Source: Myxococcales bacterium
Lineage (GTDB): Bacteria; Myxococcota_A; Polyangia; Haliangiales; Haliangiaceae
Direction of reading: 5' to 3'
DNA: 64,000 bases
Assembly (NCBI GenBank): GCA_016794525.1
Contig: JAEUJY010000077.1
Coordinates: 173,091 to 237,090, forward strand
Program-made: the position numbers and the translations under genes
The notes under the pieces: generated by a model
What the model was told of the DNA's origin: nothing
What the model saw: the letters and a program-made list of their open reading frames with translations, nothing else
The model's database searches: none
In this document: one piece after another, positions 32,180 to 33,643 of the stretch
How positions within the stretch are numbered: position 1 is the first letter of the stretch
Layout of the letters: each line of letters begins with the position of its first letter

Positions 32180-33643
32180 ATGTCCAGCCCGCGTCTGCCC
32201 GCCGAGAGGAGCCGCGCGGGCATCGGCGCGGGGATCGCCGTCGCCCTGCTGACCGCGGTCGCGGCGTGTGGCGGGGACAGCGGGCCGGGCCAGCTGGACG
32301 CCAGCGTCGATGGCGCGGCGGTCGATGGCCCGGTGGTCGACGGCACGGTGGTCGATGGCCCGGTGGTCGACGGCCCGGCGGTCGATGGGGCCGAGGTCGA
32401 TGGCGCGGTGGTCGATGGGGCGGTGGTCGACGGCGCCGAGGTCGATGGGGCGCTGGTGGACGCCTCGGCGCCGGACGCCGGCCAGGTGGACGCGAGCGTC
32501 GACGCGCCGCCGCTCGACGCGCCGCCGCTCGACGCGCTGACGCCCGATGCGTCGGCGTGCGGATCCACGTCGGCGACCGACGTCTACGTGGACCGCGCCG
32601 CGAGCGGCCCGTCGCTCGGCACCGCGCTGTGCCCGTACCACACCATCCGCGAGGCCACGACGCTGCCCGCGCCGGCGGTCGGCGGGGCGCGCACGATCCA
32701 CGTCGCCGGGGCCAGCCCGGCCGCGAGCTACGTCGAGGCCGGGCTGGTGGTCGTCGGCGCGCGGGTGACGCTGGTCGGGAGCGGCGAGGCCCAGGTGACG
32801 ATCAGCGGCGGCGGCACGTGCGCGTACTACGCCGGGCCGTGCACGCTGTCGGTGCAAGATGGCGGCGCGGTGCAGGGCGTCACCGTCACCAGCGCCACCG
32901 GCCACGCGATCGAGGTGGGCGGCAGCGGCATCGGCGCGCTCGCCCACGTCACCGCCACCGACGCCGCGCAGGTCGGGTTCCTGATCCGCGGCGCCGCGAC
33001 GCTCGACAGCGTCACCGCGCACCGCCCGCAGGGCAACGGCCTCGACGCCCGCAACGCGGCGGTGACGATCCAGGCGTCGACGTTCGAGTACAGCCAGGGC
33101 GGGTGGGGCGTCCGGATCGATCAGGGCGCGACGCTCACGCTGACCGGTGGCTCGATCACCGGCAACGCGCTGGGCGGCGTCCAGTTGCAGAACGGCAGCC
33201 AGTTCGTCGTCCTCGCGCACGCCATCACCGGCGCGCAGGTGCTGCAGAACCTCGGCTACGGCGTGCAGGTCGCGAGCAACGCCAGCCTGCGGCTGCGCGG
33301 CACGACGCTGCTGTCGAACGAGGCCGGCGTCGTGCTCGCGGTCGGCGCTTCCAACCAGCTCGATCTCGGCACCGCCGCCGCGCCGGGCGGCAACGTGCTG
33401 GCCGGCGCCAGCCCCGGCCAGAGCAACGTGCGGGCCGGGCTGTGCCTCGAGCAGAGCGGCGCGACCGCGACCCAGGCGATCGAGGGCGACAGCTGGCGCA
33501 GCTGCCCGCCGACGACGCGCAAGATCACCACGTCGTTCACCTGCCACGCGACCGGCGCCTACGCCGATCTGGTCTACCTGCCCGCGGTGGCGACCAGCGG
33601 CTCGCCGTTCCTGTCGCCGGCCGCCTGCACCGTCGGGCCGTGA
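32180..33643 (+). CDS. Secreted lipoprotein with a pentapeptide (V/A)VDG(P/A) tandem-repeat stalk and a right-handed beta-helix domain.
   Basis: A lipobox (VAACGG) is followed by about 11 copies of VVDGx, encoded by a 15-bp DNA tandem repeat, and then parallel-beta-helix-like repeats (…TLTGGSITGNALGGVQLQNGSQF…). Confidence 0.65.
   Translation: MSSPRLPAERSRAGIGAGIAVALLTAVAACGGDSGPGQLDASVDGAAVDGPVVDGTVVDGPVVDGPAVDGAEVDGAVVDGAVVDGAEVDGALVDASAPDAGQVDASVDAPPLDAPPLDALTPDASACGSTSATDVYVDRAASGPSLGTALCPYHTIREATTLPAPAVGGARTIHVAGASPAASYVEAGLVVVGARVTLVGSGEAQVTISGGGTCAYYAGPCTLSVQDGGAVQGVTVTSATGHAIEVGGSGIGALAHVTATDAAQVGFLIRGAATLDSVTAHRPQGNGLDARNAAVTIQASTFEYSQGGWGVRIDQGATLTLTGGSITGNALGGVQLQNGSQFVVLAHAITGAQVLQNLGYGVQVASNASLRLRGTTLLSNEAGVVLAVGASNQLDLGTAAAPGGNVLAGASPGQSNVRAGLCLEQSGATATQAIEGDSWRSCPPTTRKITTSFTCHATGAYADLVYLPAVATSGSPFLSPAACTVGP

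Follow-up and report, generated by a model that had tools for sequence, protein, structure and literature searches.

Introduction

In the Neisseria lipoproteins Lip/H.8, Laz and AniA the lipobox cysteine is followed by imperfect AAEAP pentapeptide repeats and these by a globular domain, which is azurin in Laz and nitrite reductase in AniA (PMC5542605, PMC3916388). The same order of lipobox, pentads and domain, with units of the same length, is found in the gene studied here, which lies at 32180–33643 (+ strand) of a 64,000-nucleotide (nt) stretch of a Myxococcales bacterium (GCA_016794525.1, contig JAEUJY010000077.1, positions 173,091 to 237,090). This stretch will be referred to as the window; its G+C content is 74.6%, and all coordinates are positions within it. 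The gene encodes a lipoprotein of 487 amino acids (aa) with a right-handed parallel beta-helix, and a tandem array of ten 15-bp units encodes most of the segment preceding the helix. The Neisseria proteins represent the closest architectural analogue, although their unit is rich in Ala, Pro and Glu and the one described here in Val, Asp and Gly, the sequences are unrelated and the globular domains differ. Moreover, the Neisseria proteins were shown to be surface exposed and immunogenic, whereas surface exposure of the window lipoprotein is an assumption.

Long disordered N-terminal linkers occur in half the lipoproteins that Escherichia coli has in its outer membrane, and for Lol sorting it matters how long and how disordered they are, but not which sequence they have (bioRxiv 10.1101/2021.01.05.425367). 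The linkers of RcsF, Pal and NlpD, which occupy the same place between sorting signal and globular domain, provide the best-supported functional analogy. They are longer than 22 residues, as is the window linker with 96 residues, which was structureless in AlphaFold2 (AF2) models and falls on the 'folded' side of the charge-hydropathy plot. The combination of free sequence with constrained length and disorder in E. coli matches the conserved composition and variable sequence found throughout the family of the window protein. However, the E. coli linkers are neither tandem-repeat arrays nor strongly acidic, and the window linker is rich in Val.

In the variable surface lipoproteins Vsa/Vlp of Mycoplasma, the number of in-frame repeats sets the length of the exposed part of the protein, which acts as a 'shield' (PMC6080569). 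This model is nearest to an earlier proposal for the window, here called the original prediction, according to which slipped-strand changes of copy number in multiples of 15 nt lengthen or shorten the stalk of a surface protein in the manner of a contingency locus. The Vsa repeats, however, are 10–19 aa long, C-terminal and near-identical, reach up to ~60 copies and vary at high frequency with phenotypic effects, whereas the window array consists of 10 imperfect N-terminal pentads, with 10–11 copies across lineages and a constant number in 11 assemblies of one of them. Simple-sequence contingency loci of Haemophilus, Neisseria and Campylobacter, a class defined by high-frequency localised hypermutation, mutate at 100–10,000 times the basal rate (PMC11868660). 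They share the proposed mechanism, slippage in a tandem repeat within the gene of an envelope component, but classical contingency tracts are perfect, have short units and usually mediate on/off switching, whereas the window tract has long imperfect units and stays in frame.

Among bacteria, enrichment in low-complexity regions is strongest in the myxobacteria (PMC6821194). We report here that the array belongs to the known class of repeat-built low-complexity lipoprotein linkers. It is best explained as an in-frame coding minisatellite, that is, as the unit-amplified and remodelled acidic spacer tether of an envelope lipoprotein, a reading to which we assign a probability of about 65%.

Results

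The repeat array

Tandem Repeats Finder (TRF) detected a period-15 array at 32306–32457 with 10.1 copies, 81% matches, no indels and a score of 185, and higher-order rows over the same array with periods of 30 (score 204) and 45 (score 213). A repeat search yielded ten registers with a spacing of exactly 15 nt as well as a second small family at 32499–32557. Comparison of the sequence with itself at an offset of 15 gave a match of 0.81 at 32306 (z = 8.3 against all 150-nt segments). As this self-match lies 8.3 standard deviations above the window mean and the runner-up elsewhere reaches only 0.56, the array is real and cannot be put down to chance. No other period-15 signal within the window is as strong, and no second pentad array was found there.

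The core array (32306–32455, + strand), delimited by TRF, the repeat search, unit tables and a codon-usage test, consists of 10 in-frame 15-bp units with the consensus GTCGATGGCGCGGTG that encode V-D-G-x-x. Read in frame 0 of the open reading frame (ORF) at 32180–33643, units 1 to 10 are VDGAA, VDGPV, VDGTV, VDGPV, VDGPA, VDGAE, VDGAV, VDGAV, VDGAE and VDGAL. The in-frame tandem repeat of about 10.5 copies that had been predicted was hence confirmed, and it shows the properties of a variable number tandem repeat, with 15-bp head-to-tail units in the coding frame, a unit length that is a multiple of 3, and shared descent of the units. The predicted 'perfect-to-near-perfect' unit was not recovered. 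Pairwise identity between units averages 0.82 with a minimum of 0.67, units 2 and 4 are the sole identical pair, and the longest exact direct repeats measure 25 nt (offset 30) and, in a DAPPL doublet, 24 nt (offset 15). With a mean identity of 0.82, one identical pair and no exact repeat above 25 nt, this is not the homogeneous perfect tract that favours slippage.

Degenerate pentad periodicity continues on both sides of the core array and spans 32291 to 32560 (+ strand). A codon-aligned unit table placed one degenerate pentad, QLDAS, upstream at 32291–32305, and downstream, TRF, the repeat search and the unit table revealed the Asp-Ala pentads VDASA PDAGQ VDAS VDAPP LDAPP LDALT PDASAC (32456–32560), which end at the conserved Cys127. 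Inside the Asp-Ala pentads lies a perfect twofold DAPPL doublet (32501–32530), covered by a TRF row at 32499–32537 with period 15, 2.6 copies and 100% matches.

The codons of the units clearly point to a single origin. The Asp codon is GAT in 7/10 units compared to 14.4% in window genes (p = 1e-4), and for the first Val each of the ten units has GTC, with a GTC:GTG ratio of 53:46 in the window. This shared codon choice shows that the units descend from one common unit.

Turnover of units between relatives

Three lineages were compared: the window, the contig L007 (protein P0008, run SRR17331998) and a sister lineage (P0002/P0009; contigs L001–L006 and L008–L012). In the domain, the window and L007 differ at 14/1065 nt (98.7% identity), with 9/355 third codon positions affected, and their flanks are 98.4–98.9% identical; the sister lineage shares 94% nt identity with the window in the domain. 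The linkers behave differently. In the best unit-gapped alignment of the core arrays of the window and L007, 16 mismatches remain over 150 nt, and 16/105 nt differ in the Asp-Ala part. Over the entire linker at least 32/255 nt plus one 15-bp unit differ (Fisher p = 5e-14 versus the domain), so that the linker has diverged ~10-fold more than the domain. The gene as a whole shows 53 differences, of which ~37 fall within 32255–32630.

The number of VDGxx/DG-type units is 10 in the window and, as lower bounds for reasons given below, 11 in L007 and 11 in the sister lineage. After the 4-residue unit, five Asp-Ala units follow in the window and in L007 and four in the sister lineage, which has one DAPPL-type unit fewer. 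The resulting distances from cysteine to cysteine are 96, 101 and 95 residues in the window, L007 and the sister lineage, respectively. The last four units of the window and L007 arrays are positional orthologues, whereas the first six, at the 5′ side, are scrambled; for instance, the L007 unit most similar to window unit 3 (ACG) is unit 9 (ATG).

Each lineage also carries its own identical units, namely units 2 and 4 in the window (W2=W4), S4=S5 and S2=S7 in L007 and T8=T9 in the sister lineage. Within the sister lineage, two adjacent DGAQV units are always both CAG or both CAA (probability by chance 3.6e-4), and both DAPPL units use CCG in the window but CCC in L007 (p = 0.02 by chance). The identical pairs together with the concerted synonymous changes demonstrate real unit turnover, and the sequences indicate that units have been duplicated, lost and copied on a timescale of ~0.5–1.5% sequence divergence.

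The sister lineage was represented by 11 contigs from 11 runs, comprising two haplotypes 0.55% apart (8 sites) plus one further variant site, and all showed one array length. The nine variant sites are located at gene positions 231, 246, 405, 489, 569, 618, 696, 807 and 991. As the contigs carry varied mixtures of these same nine sites, as if 2–3 co-occurring haplotypes had been merged differently, individual contigs may be chimeric consensus sequences.

A change of copy number in steps of 15 nt, as had been proposed, is therefore seen in frame between the window with 10 and L007 with 11 units, but all 11 assemblies of the sister lineage have a single copy number. The check suggested with the original prediction was a comparison of copy number among strains, with identical numbers across many related isolates as the outcome speaking against it; the numbers differ between lineages, and their identity in the 11 assemblies speaks in part against the prediction.

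The alleles P0008 and P0009 were the only additional ones and came from a cluster look-up. A profile search over 5.8 billion proteins gave the same 7 clusters once more, without further close alleles. Likewise, no further close allele was found by a scan of genome contigs, which yielded one distant Haliangiales locus (L013, 48%), or by a scan of metagenome contigs, which yielded three distant loci (47–51%). A protein search with the linker only gave 195 word-sharing candidates, none of which, the query protein included, scored; under the low-complexity correction this search is uninformative.

The tether and the lipoprotein

The translation of 32180–32269 (+ strand) reads as a signal peptide with a lipobox, consisting of a basic n-region (R5, R10, R12), a hydrophobic h-region, GIGAGIAVALLTAV, and the lipobox V-A-A-C30, which fits the pattern [LVI][ASTVI][GAS]C of bacterial lipoproteins, the substrates of Lgt and LspA. 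MSSPRLPAERSRAGIGAGIAVALLTAVAA directly precedes Cys30, whose codon is located at 32267–32269, and the N-terminus MSSPRLPA is kept in relatives. Cys30 is thus a likely site of lipid modification. In the mature lipoprotein, residue +2 is Gly and residue +7 is Pro. In Myxococcus xanthus, Lys at +2 is an inner-membrane signal, and Ala at +7 is found in matrix lipoproteins (PMC3222651). Under these rules both residues argue against inner-membrane retention and matrix export and, by analogy, point to the outer-membrane default.

The tether between Cys30 and the domain comprises aa 31–126 (32270–32557, + strand), 96 residues of which the core array represents the largest part. With 19 Asp and 2 Glu, and with Lys and Arg absent, it has a net charge of −21. 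In the full-length AF2 model, which was built on an alignment of 7 sequences, aa 1–125 are without secondary structure with a predicted local distance difference test (pLDDT) score of 30–37, and modelling of the linker alone gave no strands and a predicted template modelling (pTM) score of 0.12. A Pfam scan of the linker, pentapeptide-repeat families included, gave no match at E ≤ 10. The structure prediction that had been suggested for the 'stalk' accordingly returned a segment for which AF2 predicts no structure, both in context and alone, and a rigid stalk finds no support in it. Composition and models together suggest a polyanionic, low-complexity and probably flexible tether.

By standard chain geometry, 96 residues correspond to a contour length of ~33–36 nm. 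Each pentad adds ~1.8 nm of contour, but extends the mean end-to-end distance of a coil by far less.

The right-handed beta-helix domain follows at aa 127–425 (32558–33454, + strand), as delimited by Pfam and AF2. The Pfam family Beta_helix (PF13229) matches aa 243–392 (32906–33355) with 42 bits compared to a cut-off of 25.9, and AF2 predicts strands over aa 171–441 and a beta-helix of short, regular strands with pLDDT 85–97 over roughly aa 220–390. The best Foldseek matches in the PDB were the C5-epimerase AlgG, the pectate lyase Pel9A and phage tailspikes, with E values of 1e-4 to 1e-3, and this likeness to polysaccharide-active beta-helices suggests a polysaccharide-active role of the modelled domain. 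The C-terminal region (33443–33640, + strand) contains four cysteines that are invariant in the alignment columns of the family (C422, C442, C455 and C483), and pLDDT drops below 50 over aa 426–487. The beta-helix lipoprotein originally predicted as host of the array is thus borne out by PF13229, the modelled helix and the lipobox, and translation and domain map place the array in frame between lipobox cysteine and helix, as had been proposed.

The gene call is based on the ORF list, PF13229 and a G+C content at third codon positions of 0.96 in the coding frame of 32180–33643, and the 487-aa product (P0001) is 100% identical to NCBI MBL8623238.1 of a Myxococcales metagenome-assembled genome, annotated as 'right-handed parallel beta-helix repeat-containing protein'. 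NCBIfam contained no family for the lipoprotein. Long ORFs on the opposite strand or in other frames over the gene were rejected as artefacts of the high G+C content, given the third-position value of the coding frame.

Linkers in the protein family

An exhaustive HMMER search returned 109 cluster representatives with E ≤ 1e-30 and, at a threshold of 1e-10, 380; linker statistics cover the 107 members that are full-length and in which the start of the domain could be recognised. Of these, 95 carry a lipobox-like Cys with a linker behind it. These linkers range from 9 to 195 aa (median 74), are rich in Asp, Ala, Gly, Ser, Thr and Pro, and are net negative without exception (95/95; median −0.19 per residue). 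Stretches of period 5 (at least 20 residues with at least 60% self-match) occur in 13/95 linkers, and period 5 is the commonest among the periodic ones (13/19), in which periods range from 3 to 10. Pentads were amplified elsewhere in the family as ADTGV ~22-fold (P0080), as MPDTT threefold (P0078) and as DASSF and DASPP threefold each (P0005). In the charge-hydropathy plot 67/93 family linkers fall on the disordered side. Acidic linkers in 95 of the 107 members, their varied lengths and the recurrent pentads identify an acidic tether that varies in length and is free in sequence as a family trait. Judging from these sequences, local pentad amplification has happened repeatedly in the family.

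Other lipoprotein-like ORFs in the window begin with short acidic Gly/Asp linkers, none of which is periodic. A lipoprotein-like ORF at ~9030–9174 (− strand) reads …LAALAAC|GGAGGDGDPDGGAVDGGTDGGG… with an acidic Gly/Asp linker and overlaps a cluster of TRF repeats of 9–27 bp at 9030–9148.

Genomic neighbourhood

The gene order around the lipoprotein gene is kept in relatives and comprises an ECH/3HCDH fusion (−), a 224-aa ORF (+), the beta-helix gene (+), a second 224-aa ORF (−) and a cNMP-binding/PRK-like kinase gene (−). The 224-aa ORFs at 31472–32146 (+) and 33660–34334 (−) thus flank the beta-helix gene, an arrangement present in all relatives with enough flanking sequence (L001–L006, L008–L010), and neither gave a Pfam or NCBIfam family. 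The upstream one stops 34 nt before the lipoprotein gene, and the two genes may be co-transcribed. The kinase gene (34398–36533, −) encodes a 711-aa protein in which a cyclic-nucleotide-binding domain is fused to a domain of the phosphoribulokinase/uridine-kinase family, and its synteny is kept in the sister lineage.

Rfam gave no match in 30000–35000 on either strand, and no promoter-like or terminator-like sites were found in 31200–33900. With these scans empty, a role of the array as an RNA or DNA element on either strand was rejected. The window contains no tRNA genes.

A 64-nt inverted repeat with 98% complementarity was detected at 5781–5844 and 27968–28031, its arms being 22.1 kb apart. 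In each arm, ~30 nt of unique sequence with GGAGGCGGTTCGAAGTC, found in only these two places, adjoin a perfect array of hexanucleotides, which is (CCCGTG)x6 in one arm and (CGGGCA)x5.7 in the other, and a third perfect (CGGGCA)x5.7 array is located at 5940–5973, 95 nt from the first. These perfect hexanucleotide arrays are better slippage substrates than the 15-bp array. The inverted repeat could be a repeated intergenic element or mark both ends of a mobile or invertible segment of 22 kb.

Discussion

On the favoured explanation, the array would have arisen via amplification of a single progenitor 15-bp unit and would be remodelled continually by duplication, deletion and copying of units, possibly by slippage during replication or by unequal exchange or gene conversion among similar units. 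Such remodelling would make the linker the fastest-evolving part of the gene. In an envelope lipoprotein with a probable activity on polysaccharides, the tether would link Cys30, which carries the lipid, to the beta-helix domain. Selection seems to act on the composition of the linker, which is acidic and free of basic residues, and roughly on its length, but not on its sequence. A likely role is that of a spacer that keeps the globular domain away from the membrane, and the tether may also aid trafficking of the lipoprotein, by analogy with E. coli.

Several observations weigh against this explanation. The Val content of the linker (18.75%) is the maximum in the family, whose median is 7%, and because of these 19% Val the linker falls on the 'folded' side of the Uversky charge-hydropathy plot. 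This leaves AF2, run with 7-sequence or single-sequence input, as the sole source for disorder, and in view of the high Val content and the position in the plot we describe the tether as probably flexible and not simply as disordered. Furthermore, synonymous divergence from L007 is raised in the Asp-Ala part (32456–32560), with 5/35 codons compared to 9/355 in the domain (p = 0.005). This part is weakly repetitive, and slippage alone offers no obvious explanation. Conversion among similar pentads explains 2 of these 5 changes, and recombination with divergent alleles or diversifying selection could contribute. Finally, the comparison comprises three lineages in all, and the relatives (L007 and L001–L012) are Logan short-read contigs. 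Logan assemblies use k = 31, at which three or more identical units in a row would collapse, so that unit counts in the relatives are lower bounds.

The contingency-locus behaviour proposed earlier is so far unsupported, since the tract is imperfect and its length constant in 11 assemblies. A true contingency locus would be a slipped-strand hypermutable array in populations mixed in tether length, with selection by phage, predators or matrix thickness. Such a locus would agree with the 10 and 11 units of relatives that are 1.3% apart in the domain, with the reshuffled 5′ half of the array, with concerted changes that indicate unit-to-unit exchange inside a lineage diverged by 0.55%, with the in-frame nature of every change and with the independent pentad amplifications that recur across the family. 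However, units that are 82% alike with exact repeats of at most 25 nt are a poor match to it, as is the single copy number in 11 assemblies from 11 sister-lineage runs despite 8 segregating single-nucleotide polymorphisms, and the nearly constant linker length of the three lineages (96, 101 and 95 residues) looks like stabilising and not fluctuating selection. The definition calls for high-frequency localised hypermutation (PMC11868660), and we roughly estimate a handful of unit events per 1.3% point divergence. Turnover would on this estimate be fast for a coding region, yet would proceed on an evolutionary timescale and not as switching within cultures, and we therefore consider a contingency locus unlikely. 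Similarly improbable, in our view, is the broader proposition that the acidic pentad tether is an adaptive module, hypervariable in length and sequence, of the whole myxobacterial beta-helix lipoprotein family, in which slippage-prone period-5 arrays are kept because altered reach or charge of a polysaccharide-active enzyme, or escape from phage or predators recognising the tether, pays. The raised divergence could instead be driven mainly by recombination or by diversifying selection on an exposed epitope or receptor, slippage being incidental. The ~10-fold increase extends over all of the linker, with the weakly repetitive Asp-Ala part and its synonymous sites included, and both flanks are 98–99% identical, as mosaic import would give; but the identical pairs of units and the concerted changes lie within the individual arrays, there is no third allele source to show a mosaic, and an environmental myxobacterium is without known immune-type selection. 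Little probability is accordingly left for this explanation as the main driver.

The remaining alternatives question the flexibility of the tether or the counts themselves. The pentapeptide-repeat consensus is [STAV][DN][LF][STR][G], and the small-x-hydrophobic-x-Gly pattern of the array resembles it, so that the A-x-V-D-G pentads might form a pentapeptide-like beta-solenoid or a cation-dependent fold, giving a rigid stalk of quantal length. The high Val content, the placement on the folded side of the plot and the predominance of period 5 among the periodic linkers of the family would fit such a structured repeat, and the one Asp per pentad could bind Ca2+ or Mg2+. Against this stand the lack of any Pfam pentapeptide match, the absence of strands and the low pLDDT and pTM scores in AF2, and the presence of Pro at a would-be interior position in 4/10 units; moreover, the other linkers of the family are rich in Asp, Ser, Thr, Gly and Pro, a composition typical of disorder, mostly fall on the disordered side and vary in period. 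With no Pfam match at E ≤ 10 and two structureless AF2 runs, the pentapeptide-repeat fold (PF00805 clan, with A(D/N)LXX repeats and the quadrilateral beta-helix of the Rfr fold) was rejected as principal explanation, and we regard a structured repeat as distinctly unlikely. As to the counts, all relatives are short-read assemblies, and tandem arrays are classic sites of collapse in de Bruijn graphs. Yet in each array exact repeats at a unit offset stay below 31 nt (at most 25 nt in the window and, by inspection, 25 nt in L007), so that assembled paths are unambiguous; the arrays differ in unit content as well as in number, and 11 independent sister-lineage assemblies agree. That the copy-number differences are assembly artefacts is hence most unlikely.

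Conclusions

If correct, the tether explanation would make this locus a well-documented case of envelope-lipoprotein tethers being built and renewed from short coding units, in the bacterial group that is richest in low-complexity regions. The linkers would provide a natural length series, from 9 to 195 residues in the family and 10 versus 11 units in near-identical genes, suited to testing the influence of the length and charge of a tether on lipoprotein sorting and on the reach of an envelope enzyme. No new mechanism is opened by this, and the locus would become more interesting only if length varied within populations or tuned a phenotype. Should the adaptive-module proposition hold, improbable as it is, the locus would represent a contingency-type locus in a free-living soil bacterium, with a cation-dependent conformation possibly explaining the recurrence of period 5.

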